Of a stretch of 64,000 nt of DNA, positions 2 to 56,200 are shown in pieces; the stretch's first letter is position 1; each line of letters begins with the position of its first letter. This stretch comes from Escherichia phage 235Ecol030PP. Under the pieces are notes generated by a model. It saw only the letters and a program-made list of their open reading frames with translations, was not told where the DNA came from and ran no database searches. The stretch is taken from sequence record PP355091.1, one strand, 5' to 3'. Both the position numbers and the translations under genes were made by a program.

Positions 2-2108
<2,107 letters not shown>

Positions 2109-32992: not shown

Positions 32993-33022
32993 ATACTATC
33001 ACAAAGGAACCATACTGTAAAC
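32993..33022 (-). promoter_or_regulatory. early promoter: GTTTAC, 18 nt, TGaTAGTAT
   Basis: Minus strand, about 30 nt upstream of ORF 32597..32965. Confidence 0.55.
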
Positions 33023-33051
33023 AACTTTATGCAATCTTTGGAAAATAAAAA

Positions 33052-33071
33052 AGGACTCCCGAAGGAGTCCT
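33052..33071 (-). terminator. terminator after the small basic ORF (UUCG loop, U-tract)
   Basis: Minus strand AGGACUCC UUCG GGAGUCCU then UUUUUUAUUUU. Confidence 0.65.
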
Positions 33072-33075
33072 TAAC

Positions 33076-33294
33076 TTATGCTTTCTGCTTACCAAAACGA
33101 GAAGCATCATCTCGAAGAACCGCACGTGCTCGGCGCATGATCTTCTCAACAGTTTGATTGATACGAGAGTTCGACCCACGCTTGTAGCCAGCGCGTTTAG
33201 AATCACCAACTTTCTTTTCAACTGCTTTCTTTGCTTTAGCTTGTTTTGCCATTATAAATTCTCTTTTAAATGAAAATGCAGGACTTATTGGCAT
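33076..33294 (-). CDS. small very basic protein (72 aa, or 58 aa from internal ATG 33252)
   Basis: Lys/Arg-rich ORF followed by UUCG terminator; weak SD for both candidate starts. Confidence 0.4.
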   Translation of the reverse strand: MPISPAFSFKREFIMAKQAKAKKAVEKKVGDSKRAGYKRGSNSRINQTVEKIMRRARAVLRDDASRFGKQKA

Positions 33295-33539
33295 TGCCTG
33301 CGCAAGCCCTCAAGGGGAACATAGGTTTTGAATATTTACCGACAGGATAACCATAAACCTCGTCATCATACCACCAAGACTTACACAGATAACACTTTTC
33401 TGACGCATGATAGTAACATTCAAGAGGTACACCGTAAAACTGCCGGGGTCTTAAAACTATAATGATTCGCAAATCATTAATCAGACAGTTCGACGGCTCC
33501 TCGATTTAGCTCACACTAAGGCAGTGAATCTCCAATAAA

Positions 33540-33788
33540 TTACTTCAGTGTTACCACAAAGTGACGAACTGCTTTTCGTGCAGCAGAAGCCAAAGGCTTA
33601 GCATATTTAAGTTCATCTTTTTCCTGAAGCTCAGCAGCTAATGCAGTTTGAGCAGGATTCAGATGTTTGAAATAACGCAGGATTTCAAGAGCTTCGGCTT
33701 CAACATCAATAGATGCGCCATAGTTTTCGTGACCATTATTCCATGCGTTTCGTTGCAGTTCAAGAGCGTGTTGTAATTGTTTAATCAT
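33540..33788 (-). CDS. rIII: lysis inhibition accessory protein RIII
   Basis: 82 aa, adjacent to gene 31 as in the T4 map. Confidence 0.7.
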   Translation of the reverse strand: MIKQLQHALELQRNAWNNGHENYGASIDVEAEALEILRYFKHLNPAQTALAAELQEKDELKYAKPLASAARKAVRHFVVTLK

Positions 33789-33927
33789 TTAAAAATTCTC
33801 GTTAGAGATTAAAACTCGGTAGTCACGTTCTTCTGAATTTCATCTTCTTTCGACAGATCTCTCAGTTGTAGACTACCACATAGAATTGTTCGGTTAACTT
33901 ATTATTCCGACACCCAATTCATATTAT

Positions 33928-33935
33928 TATTTATA
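33928..33935 (-). promoter_or_regulatory. candidate late promoter (minus strand) between 31 and rIII
   Basis: Plus strand TATTTATA at the 3' end of gene 31. Confidence 0.3.
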
Positions 33936-34271
33936 TCACTTATAAAGACACGGAATAGCTTTATAGTGACAAGTAACGAATTTTTGTTTAATTTCTTTTG
34001 GCTGCTTAAGACCCAGAGCTACAAAAGGATGCGGAACGTTTCGAATTTGACCAACTGGAAGAGAAGTCAAATCACCAACTTCACAAAAACCTTCAGGAAC
34101 ATCAGGACCGACAGAGTGAATTACACACAGTTCAGGAACTTCACCTTGAACACGTTTACCGATAATAAGTCCTGATTCTGTAACTTCTTCATCACCGGCT
34201 TGTGCAGGTTCAGAAACTAAAATAACATATTCACCGACAGCACGAATTGGTAGCTGTTGTACTTCAGACAT
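33936..34271 (-). CDS. 31: co-chaperonin (GroES analogue)
   Basis: 111 aa as T4 gp31. Confidence 0.9.
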
Positions 34272-41729: not shown

Positions 41730-42818
41730 CGTATGTTCGATTGAGCTCGCTAATTCTCAACCCGTTCTCTTATGAACTGCTACATATTACTATGCAGACC
41801 AGACTATATCACAATCCCAGAGGGATTCTCCCCATTTCGAGTCGCTTGACCCTACGTCCGAAGACTAGTCGTTGAACCTTGCTTTGCAATTGTCGCCGTG
41901 CCATCGTTTATATGTTGATGGTGATAAATCTTTCTTATCACAATATGGACAATTCAATTGAATTCTATTTGGATTTAATTTACATCTGTCATTATGTTTT
42001 AGATAAAATCCAGGACCTTTACCAATGTGACCGCAGAAATCACATGTGATTTCTTTTTGTGCAGGATGGGTCCCGTTCTTAACCATTTCTAATGTTTTTG
42101 CTGATGTTCTTTTCTTATGGTCTTCTGACAAGAAATGATGCGAACCGTCATTTACCCGTTTTGATTGAGTTTCTGACTGCATTTTACCACCGCAAAATAC
42201 ATGAGTACCTTCTTTTATAGCTGCAATATTGCGTTCTTTAACTTTTGCAATATGCTCAGCTTGTTGAAAATTATGTATACCTAATGCAACTCTATTTAAA
42301 TTAGATTTACGCTGTATTTCACCGTCTAAAAGATGAAATGTACCATTTTCTATCTTAGATTTAATAGAGGCAATATTTTTAGCTCGTACTTCAGGAATAT
42401 TAAAAATCTGGATTTCTCTAGATTTTGCGGCTTTAGAAGCTAATTCAGAAATTTCTTCAGGAGAATATTTCATTCTAAGCTTTATAGCATGACAAGCCTG
42501 GTAATCTTTTTGAGCTAAATGTATATCATAATGTTCCTGTATAGAAAGGCACATCAAATTATCTAAATCATTATTTTCACGGTTACCGTCTTTATGATGG
42601 ATTTCGTATGTTCTTCCATCAGAATCTTTAGGTATAGGTCCGTTAGCATCTATCCAAATTTTTCTATAGTTCAATTGTGCATCCTCTTAAAAGTATAATC
42701 ATATTCATATTATACTAATTAAAGGTGCAAGCAAAACCTTGGCTGCTAGTTTTCCATAAAGGACTTTCCAGCAATTAAAGGAGTTTTCGATAAACGTTAC
42801 CGTTTAAAGGCGCATTTT
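41730..42818 (-). mobile_element. group I self-splicing intron in nrdB (1089 nt) carrying a homing endonuclease ORF
   Basis: Interrupts conserved R2 motif; 5' junction GCGT|AAAATGCGCC allows P1 pairing GCGU/GCGC with G.U; 3' end ...GAACATACG parallels td intron end ...GAACATAATG. Confidence 0.82.
41865..42674 (-). CDS. I-TevIII: intron-encoded HNH homing endonuclease, full length
   Basis: 269 aa; HNH motif EIHHKDGNRENNDLDNL; C-terminal Cys/His zinc-finger-like CDFCGH...CPYCDKK; apparent TTG start 7 nt after GAGGA. Confidence 0.8.
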   Translation of the reverse strand: MNYRKIWIDANGPIPKDSDGRTYEIHHKDGNRENNDLDNLMCLSIQEHYDIHLAQKDYQACHAIKLRMKYSPEEISELASKAAKSREIQIFNIPEVRAKNIASIKSKIENGTFHLLDGEIQRKSNLNRVALGIHNFQQAEHIAKVKERNIAAIKEGTHVFCGGKMQSETQSKRVNDGSHHFLSEDHKKRTSAKTLEMVKNGTHPAQKEITCDFCGHIGKGPGFYLKHNDRCKLNPNRIQLNCPYCDKKDLSPSTYKRWHGDNCKARFND

Positions 42819-46652: not shown

Positions 46653-46971
46653 CATTATGTTCAGATAAGGTCGTTAATCTTACCCCGGAATTATATCCAG
46701 CTGCATGTCACCATGCAGATCAGACTATATCTTCAACTTGTTAAAGCAAGTTGTCTATCGTTTCGAGTCACTTGACCCTACTCCCCAAAGGGATAGTCGT
46801 TAGGCATTTATGTAGAACCAATTCCATTATCAGATTTTACACGGTAAGTAACTAATCCTGATGAAATTATTAAAGGGTAGTCCTACAATTTAGCACGGGA
46901 TTGTCTACTAGAGAGGTTCCCCGTTTAGATAGATTACAAGTATAAGTCACCTTATACTCAGGCCTCAATTA
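46653..46971 (-). ncRNA. td group I intron, ORF-less (319 nt)
   Basis: 5' end TAATTGAGGCCTGAGTATAAGGTGACTTATAC and 3' end ...GATTAACGACCTTATCTGAACATAATG match remembered T4 td intron ends; no room for an I-TevI ORF. Confidence 0.88.
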
Positions 46972-47519
46972 ACCCAAGAAAACATCTACTGATCGTTGAT
47001 ACCACTGCAAATCCAAATAACCATTACGCACATTAAACTGATAGAACATATGACAAGGTGGTAATGCCATATATTTAAGTTCAGCTGGATTCCACGCAGA
47101 AACAATTTGACGCCTATCATTTGGCAGTTTTTTAATACGATCAATAACTTCTATAATTTGATCTACACCACCAAAATCACGCCACTGTTTTCCATAAATT
47201 GGACCAAGTTCACCGCTATGGTATCCTAAATCTTTTGCTTGATTTTCGTAATTTTCATCCCAAACTGTTTTGCCTTGGATTAACGAATCATGTTGAATTA
47301 ATCGCAAATCATTGACATTTGTGCTTCCCGATAAAAACCAAAGCAGCTCAGCAATGCAAGCTTTCCAGGCGAGCTTCTTAGTTGTTACTGCAGGAAAACC
47401 TTTAGTTAAATCCCAGCGTAATTTAGTACCGAACAAAGCAATTGTTCCTGTGCCTGTTCGGTCATCGGTTTCGTAGCCATTTTCCAGGATATCTTTAATT
47501 AAAAATTGGTATTGTTTCA

Positions 47520-53166: not shown

Positions 53167-53200
53167 CTTATTATTGAAAACACAATAGGAGCCCGGGAGA

Positions 53201-56200
53201 ATGGCCGAGATTAAAAGAAAGTTCAGAGCAGAAGATGGTCTGGACGCAGGTGGCGATAAAATAATCAACGTAGCTTTAGCTGATCGTACCGTAGGAACTG
53301 ACGGTGTTAACGTTGATTACTTAATTCAAGAAAACACAGTTCAACAATATGATCCAACTCGTGGATATTTAAAAGATTTTGTAATCATTTATAATAATCG
53401 TTTTTGGGCAGCAACGGATGATATTCCAAAACCTGCTGGAAATTTTAATAGAATTCGTTGGAAAGCATTACGTACTGATGCTGTATATACAACCGTATCA
53501 TCTGGACCATATCAATTAAAATCCGGAGAAGCAATTTCAGTAGATACATCAGTTGGCAATGACATTGAGTTTACTTTACCACCTTCTCCGCTTGATGGAG
53601 AAACCGTAATAATTCAAGATATCGGTGGAAAACCTGGCATAAATCAGGTTAAAATAAATTCTTCAAATCAGAGTATTGTCAATTTTAGAGGTGAACAGGT
53701 ACGTTCAGTTTTAATGACTCATCCAAAGTCACAGATGGTATTCATTTTTAATAATCGTTTGTGGCAAATGTATGTTGCTGATTATAGCAGAGAAGCTGCG
53801 ATTGTTACTCCATCGACTGCATATCAAGCACAATCTAATGATTTTATCGTGCGTAGATTTACTTCCGCTGCGCCGATTAATGTTAAGCTTCCAAGATTTG
53901 CTAATCATGGCGATATTATTAATTTCGTCGATTTAGATAAATTAAATCCACTTTATCATACAATTGTCACGACATATGATGAAACGACGTCAGTGCAAGA
54001 AGTTGGAACTCATTCCATTGAAGGCCGTACAACGATTGACGGTTTCTTGATGTTTGATGATAATGAGAAATTGTGGAGATTGTTTGACGGGGATAGTAAA
54101 GCACGTTTACGTATTATAACAACTAATTCTAATATTCGTCCAAATGAAGAAGTCATGGTGTTTGGTGCGAATAATGGAACACCCCAAACAATTGAACTTC
54201 AGCTTCCGACTGATATTTCTGTTGGTGATACTGTCAAAATTTCCATGAATTACATGAGAAAAGGACAAACAGTTAAAATCAAAGCTGCAGGTGAAGATAA
54301 AATTGCTTCTTCAGTTCAATTGCTGCAATTCCCAAAACGTTCAGAATATCCGCCTGAAGCTGAATGGGTAAAAGTTCAAGAATTAGTTTTTAATGGTGAA
54401 ACTAATTATGTTCCAGTTTTGGAGCTTGCTTATATTGAAGATTCTGATGGAAAATATTGGGTTGTACAGCAAAACGTTCCAACTGTAGAAAGAGTAGATT
54501 CTTTAAATGATTCTACTAGAGCAAGATTAGGCGTAATTGCTTTAGCTACACAAGCTCAAGCTAATGTCGATTTAGAAAATTCTCCACAAAAAGAATTAGC
54601 AATTACTCCAGAAACGTTAGCTAATCGTACTGCTACTGAAACTCGTAGAGGTATTGCAAGAATAGCAACTACTGCTCAAGTGAATCAGAACACCACATTC
54701 TCTTTTGCTGATGATATTATCATTACTCCTAAAAAGCTGAATGAAAGAACTGCTACAGAAACTCGTAGAGGTGTTGCTGAAATTGCTACGCAGCAAGAAA
54801 CTAATGCAGGTACTGATGATACTACAATCATTACTCCTAAAAAGCTTCAAGCTCGTCAAGGTTCTGAATCATTATCTGGTATTGTAACTTTTGTATCTAC
54901 TGCAGGTGCTACTCCAGCTTCTAGTCGTGAATTAAATGGTACAAATGTTTATAATAAAAACACTAATAATTTAGTTGTTTCGCCTAAAGCTTTGGATCAG
55001 TATAAAGCTACGCCTACTCAACAGGGTGCAGTAATTTTAGCAGTTGAAAGTGAAGTAATTGCTGGACAAAGTCAGCAAGGATGGGCAAATGCTGTTGTAA
55101 CGCCAGAAACGTTACATAAAAAGACATCAACTGATGCAAGAATTGGTTTAATTGAAATTGCTACACAAAGTGAAGTTAATACAGGAACTGACTATACTCG
55201 TGCAGTCACTCCTAAAACTTTAAATGACCGTAGAGCAACTGAAAGTTTAAGTGGTATAGCTGAAATTGCTACACAAGTTGAATTCGACGCAGGCGTCGAC
55301 GATACTCGTATCTCTACACCATTAAAAATTAAAACTAGATTTAATAGTACTGATCGTACTTCTGTTGTTGCTCTATCTGGATTAGTTGAATCAGGAACTC
55401 TCTGGGACCATTATACCCTTAATATTCTTGAAGCAAATGAGACACAGCGTGGTACACTTCGTGTAGCTACACAAGTTGAAGCTGCTGCAGGAAAATTAGA
55501 TAATGTTTTAATAACTCCTAAAAAGCTTTTAGGTACTAAATCTACTGAAGCACAAGAAGGTGTTATTAAAGTTGCAACTCGGTCTGAAACTGTAACTGGA
55601 ACGTCAGCAAATACTGCTGTATCTCCAAAAAATTTAAAATGGATTGTGCAGAGTGAACCTACTTGGGCAGCTACTACTGCGATAAGAGGTTTTGTTAAAA
55701 CCTCATCTGGTTCAATTACGTTCGTTGGTAATGATACGGTAGGTTCAACACAGCCATTAGAATCATATGAGAAAAATGGTTATGCAGTATCACCATATGA
55801 ATTAAATCGCGTATTAGCAAATTATTTGCCATTAAAAGCAAAAGCTGTAGATAGTAATTTATTAGATGGTCTAGATTCGCTCCAGTTCATTCGTAGGGAC
55901 ATTGCACAAACAGTTAATGGTTCACTAACCTTAACCCAACAAACGAATCTGAGTGCCCCTCTTGTATCATCTAGTACTGCTGCATTCGGTGGATCAGTTT
56001 CAGCAAATAGTACATTAACTATTTCTAATACTGGAACGGCAACTCGTCTGATTTTTGAGAAAGGACCTCAAACTGGAACAAACCCAGCTCAAACGATGAC
56101 AGTCAGAGTGTGGGGAAATCAATTTAGTGGGGAATCAGACACAACACGTTCTACCGTATTTGAAGTTAGTGATGAAACGTCTAGTCATTTTTATTCTCAG

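Follow-up and report, generated by a model that had tools for sequence, protein, structure and literature searches.

The spacer between the genes rIII and 30.9 of Escherichia phage 235Ecol030PP (sequence record PP355091.1), of which a stretch of 64,000 nucleotides (nt), here called the window, was analyzed, codes for no protein, being neither a gene nor a dead gene, and is composed of small RNA modules, at least two of which have folds that appear to be under selection. The best explanation that we can offer is that it is a cis-acting, structured intercistronic leader that would govern the processing or stability of the rIII-30.9 mRNA and the translation of 30.9, a reading that we consider about evenly balanced between right and wrong and whose mechanism is inferred. 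The window is a segment of a Tequatrovirus (T4/T6-like) genome, and an 851-nt query around the spacer matched 966 phage records, with a top identity of 99.4%. An earlier note on this DNA, made from the letters alone, had pointed to about 245 nt without a convincing open reading frame (ORF) at 33295-33539, lying between the rIII stop and the start of a small basic ORF, and had proposed a small RNA, a structured leader or a decayed gene. The interval indeed holds no ATG-started ORF of at least 45 amino acids (aa) on either strand, and the rIII stop codon (33540-33542, minus strand) is its upstream edge, but the downstream edge had been placed at 33294, while the conserved start of 30.9 is at 33252. 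The corrected spacer therefore covers 33253-33539, 287 nt on the minus strand. This boundary follows from the T4 annotation, in which 30.9 has 58 aa (equivalent to ATG 33252 here, whereas the upstream ATG at 33294 would give 72 aa), from a 1-nt deletion between both ATGs in the relatives L010 and L016 (L numbers are our handles for relatives) that puts the upstream ATG out of frame, and from the lack of any in-frame ATG upstream of the 58-aa start in relatives outside Tequatrovirus. As for the identities proposed, the structured-RNA options gained from covariation, conserved G-U pairs and conservation above that of the neighbors, and the decayed gene did not survive.

Comparison of spacers revealed discrete blocks conserved at the nucleotide level, which are, 5' to 3' on the gene strand, D1, D, W44, A, B1, B2 and an anti-Shine-Dalgarno/Shine-Dalgarno (anti-SD/SD) hairpin. 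The largest, D (33424-33502, minus strand), is a long composite hairpin of 25 bp that was recovered by RNAalifold, pair counting and local minimum free energy (MFE) folding. It consists of an interrupted 17-bp lower helix, GAGG-A-GCCGU-C-GAACUGUC (33484-33502) paired with GGCAGUUU-U-ACGGU-GUA-CCUC (33424-33444), and an 8-bp upper hairpin, UAAUGAUU-UGCG-AAUCAUUA (33460-33479), and the local MFE fold of the window sequence agrees with the consensus at -25.9 kcal/mol. Across 19 distinct sequences, 98.5% of the cells of D are paired, against 25 to 63% with slid partners, and 5 of the 25 pairs show compensatory changes, against 1.7 ± 0.9 in shuffles, none of 500 of which reached 5; these shuffle statistics, like those for A below, are inflated by the relatedness of the sequences. 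An example is the change from GCCGU/ACGGU to GCCAU/AUGGU in several phages, and two G-U pairs are kept without exception across the 19 sequences. Module A (33324-33366, minus strand), of which 34 distinct homologues were found in the loci, combines a hairpin (33339-33366), (A)UGAC-G-AGG / CCU-GUCG(G) with the conserved 11-nt loop UUUAUGGUUAU, and directly 3' of it a conserved, AU-rich tail, UAAAUAUUCAAAACC (33324-33338). Among 20 diverse sequences, compensatory changes (A-U to U-A, C-G to G-C, etc.) affect 4 of the 8 pairs of A, and 87.3% of the cells are paired, compared with 72.0% in shuffles. Covariation in A scored 0.312, whereas shuffles gave 0.091, with none of 500 attaining the observed value, and slid controls gave at most 0.092. 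Covariance across T4-like phages, which the earlier note had named as a check, is thus present in both modules and collapses when partners are slid. A U-G pair in A is retained in 18 of the 20 sequences, and since the G-U pairs in D and A would be A-C mismatches on the opposite strand, the folding molecule is the sense RNA. At the level of predicted pairing, the comparison shows that helices D and A are maintained by selection and on the gene strand only.

The modules are also more conserved than the genes that flank them. In a group of Mosigvirus-, Dhakavirus- or Gaprivervirus-like phages (L017-L024), nucleotide identity to the window was 77 to 82% for gene 31, 83 to 85% for rIII and 71 to 73% for 30.9, whereas it reached 97 to 98.5% for D2 (the 3' two-thirds of D, 33416-33481), 89 to 96% for A and 90 to 97% for B1/B2. 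Such identity reflects either strong purifying selection or recent exchange of modules, and because of the compensatory changes, selection on the fold explains at least part of it. At the same time the modules act as exchangeable cassettes that have been reordered, replaced or deleted in relatives. Between D and A lies a slot that is occupied by W44 in the window, left empty in T4 and filled by a module of about 135 to 150 nt, module C, in ACG-C40 and many other phages. Near-identical Tequatroviruses have four spacer alleles: one of 119 nt with A, B1 and B2 only (N2 and Lv5cm), one of 244 nt with the W44 slot empty (T4), one of 287 nt (this window and T6) and one of about 397 nt (ACG-C40 and ESh36). 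The comparison with the same interval in T4 (NC_000866), also suggested at the outset, thus gave a homologous gap of 244 nt (130541-130784) between 30.9 (130364-130540) and rIII (130785-131033), which is likewise unannotated. The modules are ordered differently in phages of Klebsiella, Enterobacter and Serratia, for example as A-D1'-C-B1-E in L033 and as B1-C-A followed by a terminator-like hairpin in L027.

The region next to 30.9 has a layout that persists even where its sequence does not. The hairpin B2 (33278-33303, minus strand) has a 5-bp stem, GCAGG/CCUGC, and a 14-nt loop, CAAUGCCAAUAAGU, and is followed by AUUUUCAUUU and then by the anti-SD/SD hairpin UUUUC-AUUUAAAA-GAGAA (33259-33276, minus strand), in which the weak SD sequence of 30.9 is paired. 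Every relative that carries a spacer has a hairpin at the B2 position, and the stems of these hairpins fall into at least six sequences unrelated to each other (such as GAACUGG/CCAGUUC, GGGAGC/GCUCCC, GGCUCUA/UAGAGC and GAGAGGU/ACCUCUC). In MFE folds of nine leader types, each has a stable hairpin, a U-rich stretch and then a small SD-pairing hairpin before the AUG of 30.9, in which GAGA or GGAAG pairs with an upstream UUUC or CUCC. A terminal hairpin and a paired SD thus precede 30.9 in 9 of 9 leader types, but the upstream modules vary in order and presence, and the SD stem is weak. A related arrangement precedes rIII itself. The spacer between gene 31 and rIII contains element E (33818-33877, minus strand), an extended hairpin that spans about 60 nt, is tipped by C(GAAA)G, agrees with the MFE fold and is 85% identical over 48 nt to a Klebsiella-type element, and 3' of it lies an anti-SD/SD hairpin of rIII, UCUC-UAAC-GAGA (33797-33808). 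All three helices of element E show compensatory changes (GGUAGUC/GACUACC to GGGAGC/GCUCCC, CUGA/UCAG to CCGA/UCGG and AUCU/AGAU to AACU/AGUU), and in Klebsiella-type phages it is found upstream of 30.9 in the place of B2. Since element E and an SD hairpin precede rIII here and 30.9 in the Klebsiella-type phages, the combination of a hairpin and an occluded SD looks like a portable 5' leader unit of this gene cluster. A late-promoter-like TATAAATA lies near element E at 33928-33935. The upstream ATG at 33294, at which many phage annotations begin 30.9 (72 aa, "putative 11.1 kDa protein"), sits in the loop of B2, and the 58-aa start at 33252 is the conserved one.

The spacer is probably transcribed together with both genes. 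No intrinsic terminator was found inside it, the scan giving sites only at 33051-33072 and 33098-33114 and not calling B2 either, and the strong terminator 3' of 30.9 (33051-33072, minus strand; 9-bp stem, UUCG loop and T-run), also annotated as a terminator in OE5505, closes the rIII-30.9 transcription unit. As far as the terminator scan can show, rIII, the spacer and 30.9 therefore form one transcription unit. We propose that the spacer would be read on the minus strand within the polycistronic rIII-30.9 mRNA as a series of RNA modules, each folding on its own. The long D hairpin and the AU-rich, single-stranded tail of A may serve as sites of endonucleolytic processing or as barriers to decay, and these sites could let the rIII and 30.9 messages meet different fates. 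The weak ribosome-binding site of 30.9 would be kept partly shut by B2 and the anti-SD hairpin, and translation of 30.9 might then be poor or confined to certain conditions. Published T4 omics data place the RNAs of rIII and of 30.9 in the early class and the RIII protein in the middle class, while the 30.9 protein was undetected (PMC9697503 supplement), which fits with poor translation of 30.9.

Several observations weigh against this interpretation. A protein of 58 aa is easily overlooked in proteomics. The SD hairpin of 30.9 is weak, as its stem has just 4 to 5 bp and is rich in A-U and G-U pairs. The thermodynamic stability of the spacer as a whole is unremarkable, with z values of -1.8 (gene strand) and -1.9 (opposite strand), and the structure of D was derived from the very sequences on which it was scored. 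The high D2 identity between diverged phages could in part reflect recent recombination and not purifying selection. Finally, the spacer is dispensable in nature, the Tequatroviruses N2 and Lv5cm being without D1, D and W44, and one distant T4-like phage has only 9 nt between rIII and 30.9.

The remaining modules of the window are smaller. D1 (33510-33528, minus strand) is a small hairpin with a stem of CAC/GUG plus U-A and U-G and a conserved 9-nt loop, UGCCUUAGU; its stem varies between phages in a compensatory manner (CAC/GUG, CGC/GCG, UGC/GCA and AGC/GCU, as read by eye without a formal score), and just 5' of it lies the 13-mer TTTATTGGAGATT (33527-33539). A kissing-loop pairing between D1 and A, looked for by eye, was inconsistent across phages, and A also occurs without D1. 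W44 (33368-33415, minus strand), defined by alignment to T4 and Sf25 and the module map, is a 48-nt cassette with the inner hairpin CAGA-AAAGUGUUA-UCUG, the stem of which becomes CAGC/GCUG in L016 and L028, and in L028 its core lies within a terminator-like hairpin ahead of 30.9. B1 (33307-33317, minus strand) is a mini hairpin, CCC-CUUGA-GGG, followed by CUUG; it is kept in all groups with stem variants CCUC/GAGG, CCC/GGG and CCC..AGG, and in some phages stands directly 3' of the rIII stop, but its support is weak because the stem is short. The GC-rich palindromic patch that had drawn attention earlier, GCATTGCCTGCGCAAGCCCTCAAGGGG, was found at 33291-33317 on the plus strand and corresponds, in reverse complement, to hairpins B1 and B2. 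Every module is present in a single copy in the window by BLAST, and for A also by a covariance model with filters off, which gave one match (33316-33374, 73.3 bits) and a runner-up of 14.5 bits; the modules are therefore not dispersed repeats. A degenerate pattern for module A was also scanned against IMG/VR but was too strict and returned T4-type copies alone.

The clearest structured RNA of the locus lies outside this window. Module C (at about 525-680, minus strand, in L008, which is ACG-C40, and also in L010, L020-L023, L027, L029, L031-L039, L045, L065, L067 and L069) was found in 405 GenBank phage records, of which 158 are from Klebsiella and 131 from Escherichia, the others including Enterobacter, Yersinia, Serratia and Edwardsiella phages, and it is single-copy in each of the 18 IMG/VR phage contigs that carry it. 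It is never annotated as RNA: most matches overlap no feature, and the remaining ones fall within short "hypothetical protein" calls. In its consensus fold, 44 pairs are distributed over eight helices, among them a closing stem, P1, whose sequence turns over completely between phages, and a GNRA-capped hairpin. Both sides were changed in 17 of the 44 pairs, against 6.9 ± 1.6 in shuffles (0 of 500 reaching this number), and 98.1% of the cells are paired, against 26 to 42% when slid. Module C is 92 to 95% identical between phages in which rIII is only about 72 to 75% identical, and it contains the invariant sequence GCUAACGGUGUGCAACAGAU (also written GCTAACGGTGTGCAACAGAT). No Rfam family was matched by cmscan at permissive thresholds, the module is absent from both the window and T4, and no description of it was found in the literature searched. 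Two ideas about its identity were dropped: a bacterial origin, since the 3 hits of an 18-mer scan across 185,579 genomes lay in unrelated phyla and were fewer than chance predicts, and an RNase P RNA, of which the strings GUGCAACAGA and GAACCCGG are reminiscent but for which covariance models gave no support. Module C might act as a new ribozyme, as a sensor of a ligand or as a decoy for a protein. Its presence between D and A shows the locus to be a home for selected structured RNA. We tentatively suggest, as a possibility that we think doubtful, that T-even-like phages may share a family-wide "RNA cassette slot," of which the spacer would be the T4-type allele and which would carry functional, exchangeable RNA genes instead of passive mRNA hairpins; module C would then be the clearest member, and D and A further members.

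That the cassettes can move between unrelated phages is indicated by phi92-like phages (Stephanstirmvirinae, an unrelated family; 17 records), which have an insert of about 330 bp in their tRNA cluster, between tRNA-Gly and tRNA-Gln (L049 1293-1634 and L050; phi92, NC_023693, at about 53200-54100). The insert consists of the T4-allele spacer and the ATG of 30.9 fused to rIII codons 43 to 82 and the rIII stop. Two copies of the 13-bp TTTATTGGAGATT border the insert, and the empty site of the sister phage PaulScherrer (L071 380-402) has one. Relative to T4 the insert is circularly permuted, and the permutation together with the 13-bp repeats is the outcome expected from integration of a small circle via 13 bp of homology. 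By analogy, the insertion echoes the mini-circle model proposed for the shuffling of promoter-early stem-loop cassettes (PeSLs). The chimeric 42-aa ORF in phi92 is annotated as a "lysis inhibition accessory protein."

Among the other explanations, a protein-coding origin, either as a decayed gene or as a small protein still encoded, is the one that the data disfavor most, and we give it hardly any weight. The sole sizeable frame in the spacer is the 68-aa TTG ORF at 33266-33472, which had been noted before as a 68-codon frame without an SD and which is indeed present with no SD found upstream and no ATG start. Some automated annotations (PHANOTATE and RefSeq OE5505) call it a hypothetical protein, but it matched nothing in PHROG or Pfam at E values up to 1, and it is broken in T4, which when aligned to the window lacks 44 nt inside the frame and has three 1-nt indels, as well as in Sf25 and teqsoen, which have some of the T4 1-nt indels. 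The relatives compared, 40 IMG/VR loci recovered via rIII and 10 GenBank loci with spacers of 0 to 422 nt, contained no conserved frame and no intact ancestor gene, and the short ORFs in their spacers are mutually inconsistent translations, in different frames, of the same conserved nucleotides. The 773 matching phage records likewise held no intact homologue, the region there being unannotated or bearing inconsistent short calls, and substitutions track helices rather than codons. A conserved ATG-started ORF in related phages, which would have pointed to a gene, was looked for in the 40 related loci and not found; with no relative having an intact or consistently framed ORF and with indels of 1 or 44 nt, the decayed-gene reading is largely refuted. 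Very improbable, though with somewhat more to recommend it, is a signal at the DNA level: an early promoter, TTTACG-N17-TACTAT (33410-33438), preceded by an AAUGAUU hairpin, would form a PeSL-like unit driving 30.9. This sequence fits the T4/PST PeSL promoter consensus TTTACW-N17-TAYWAT (PMC4122927) at 11 of 12 positions, a match confined to the window allele, and the RNA of 30.9 is of the early class (PMC9697503 supplement). Its -10 element, however, lies in W44 and is lacking in T4, where GAATGA stands in its place; its spacing is destroyed by a 7-nt insert in L011-type phages; its -35 element is one strand of the helix that covaries from GCCGU/ACGGU to GCCAU/AUGGU; and the consensus scan did not report the site. 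That scan found no sigma-70, middle or late promoter inside the spacer, with no TGCTT MotA box and no TATAAATA.

Two further alternatives accept that the modules are real. One is that the operon transcript is processed to yield one or more of them as stable small RNAs that act in trans, with regulatory, decoy or catalytic roles, so that the spacer would be an RNA gene locus. We regard this as unlikely but worth keeping in mind, since loops and junctions are conserved besides stems (the A loop UUnnnGGUUAU, the D1 loop and the B2 loop), a pattern typical of partner-binding RNAs, and since module C sits in the same slot in 405 phage genomes as a unit of about 135 nt with its own P1 stem, compensatory changes in 17 of 44 pairs and a GNRA hairpin. 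The order of the modules relative to 30.9 is also variable, which argues against a fixed expression platform. Against release as small RNAs, the scans gave no internal promoter or terminator, the sole promoter-like match, TTTACG-N17-TACTAT, not being conserved, the window and T4 are without module C, and neither the spacer nor module C matches an Rfam family. The other alternative, which we consider less plausible still, is that the spacer is a build-up of mobile or recombinogenic cassettes, scars of PeSL-type shuffling in a hyperplastic region, with no function for the phage beyond that of tolerated hairpins. It would account for the differences in modules between near-identical Tequatroviruses (119, 244, 287 and 397 nt) and in their order between genera, for the permuted T4-type spacer with half of rIII in the phi92-like tRNA cluster, with its small-circle-like use of 13 bp of homology, and for the presence of a PeSL-like terminator and promoter unit just downstream of 30.9 (PMC4122927). 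It does not account for compensatory substitutions and conservation above that of the flanking genes, which mean selection on a folded RNA, and the modules are single-copy in the 64-kb window and without the promoter that defines PeSLs. The cis-acting leader remains our preferred reading of the spacer.

A number of known elements were also considered and set aside. Rfam 15 gave nothing inside the spacer in cmscan at E values up to 10 and nothing relevant in six relatives. ARAGORN found no tRNA or tmRNA gene in the window, which speaks against a tRNA or decayed tRNA, and the 13-mer that also flanks tRNA-Gln in phi92 marks a recombination junction and is not a sign of homology. The T4 stable RNAs rnaC and rnaD have no similarity to any module by BLAST or nhmmer. 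D1 shares TTCACTGCC-N8-AGCTAA with the type I-F CRISPR repeat (at 33502-33529, minus strand), which raised the idea of a repeat mimic (an RNA anti-CRISPR), but the 17 to 18 identities over 28 positions equal the chance maximum in shuffled windows (17 to 20), other sites in the window reach 18 to 19, and the covarying stem of D1 is in a different register from that of the I-F repeat, the Cas6f stem. As the identity is at chance level and the stems differ, we treat the likeness as a coincidence. A Rho loading site was rejected, the sense RNA being G-rich over C (65 G and 49 C), as was a dispersed PeSL- or REP-like repeat, given the single copies in the window. No description of the spacer was found in the literature searched.

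The genes in this region, cd, 31.2, 31.1, 31 (33936-34271), rIII, 30.9 and 30.8, all lie on the minus strand, in that order, with the spacer between rIII and 30.9 and the terminator between 30.9 and 30.8. rIII (33540-33788, 82 aa in the ORF list) is 100% identical to T4 rIII, and 30.9 (33076-33252, start ATG 33250-33252) encodes a basic protein of 58 aa that is recognized from the T4 annotation, a PHROG match and tblastn across the loci; its product belongs to phrog_1427 (2.3e-31), a family without an assigned function. In Shigella phage Sf25 (L003, 577-960), 30.9 is apparently tandem-duplicated and fused, with two tblastn hits and an annotated ORF of 127 aa. Distant T4-like phages lack the spacer, rIII adjoining a 44-aa homologue of 30.9 (9-nt spacer) or another gene. 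In L041, L042, L043, L044, L046 and L047 (distant T4-like, 1720-2120), rIII is followed directly by the next gene, which is the 44-aa homologue of 30.9 in L042 or an unrelated conserved gene of 103 to 126 aa (motif EDSQDAGY..TLETPR). Downstream of 30.9 on the minus strand (32993-33072), the strong terminator at 33051-33072 is directly followed by a promoter-like TTTACA-17-TAGTAT (32993-33021) ahead of 30.8, which is a PeSL arrangement (PMC4122927). The G+C content of 33295-33539 is 42%, against 36.4% for the window, and the interval is one of three stretches of more than 200 nt in the window in which neither strand carries an ATG-started ORF of 45 aa or longer. The largest of them (46701-46981, minus strand) is a group I catalytic intron (Rfam RF00028, 73.8 bits), the only result of an Rfam search of the whole window at the gathering threshold, and the third (42555-42816) spans 262 nt, likewise with both strands free of such ORFs.

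Although T4 serves as the reference for a very large family of phages, this stretch of 244 to 287 nt is a blank in its annotation. Automatic annotators sometimes label the spacer a "hypothetical protein" or extend 30.9 into it, and reading it as folded RNA corrects both. The D, A and B2 helices offer mutable targets for studying the expression of rIII and of the basic protein 30.9. Module C is a well-folded RNA without an assigned role in hundreds of Klebsiella and E. coli phages that are candidates for therapy, and the phi92 insertion is an unusually clean natural case of the transfer of a cassette between unrelated phage families via 13 bp of homology.

The spacer resembles several known systems in part. 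Like PeSLs of T4-type phages, its modules are short stem-loops in a hyperplastic region, at the edges of insertions, deletions and replacements, and the phi92 insertion is evidence for movement via a small circle (PMC2839356, PMC4122927). PeSLs have many copies per genome and are defined by a terminator-like stem and an early promoter (PMC2839356, PMC4122927), whereas the spacer modules are single-copy, have no conserved promoter and form complex, covarying folds. The mosaic of hairpins between genes of one operon, plausibly a barrier to mRNA decay, is reminiscent of bacterial REP/BIME mosaics, but REP elements are dispersed in hundreds of copies, while the spacer modules are unique to their locus in the window. 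The T4 species 1 and 2 RNAs, rnaC and rnaD, are unexplained structured phage RNAs of 119 to 139 nt, a size similar to that of module C, and the phi92 copy of the spacer lies in a tRNA cluster, although their sequences bear no similarity to the modules. D resembles in form the intercistronic RNase III hairpins of T7 early mRNA (R1.1 type), being irregular, intercistronic, about two helical turns long, with small internal loops and a conserved shape; it differs in its branched top and in being missing from some natural isolates, and the likeness is one of shape, which does not define membership. T4 is not known to process the rIII-30.9 transcript with RNase III. Hairpins that sequester the ribosome-binding site are known in late and early transcripts of T4, in the mRNAs of genes e, soc, 49 and I-TevI and of genes 25 and 38; classically, an open mRNA arises from a late promoter that lies within the hairpin. 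The 30.9 hairpin has a much weaker stem and holds neither a late promoter (TATAAATA) nor another start signal, but it shares with these T4 hairpins the placement of an SD-containing hairpin just 5' of the start codon in a long read-through transcript, an arrangement found here for both rIII and 30.9.

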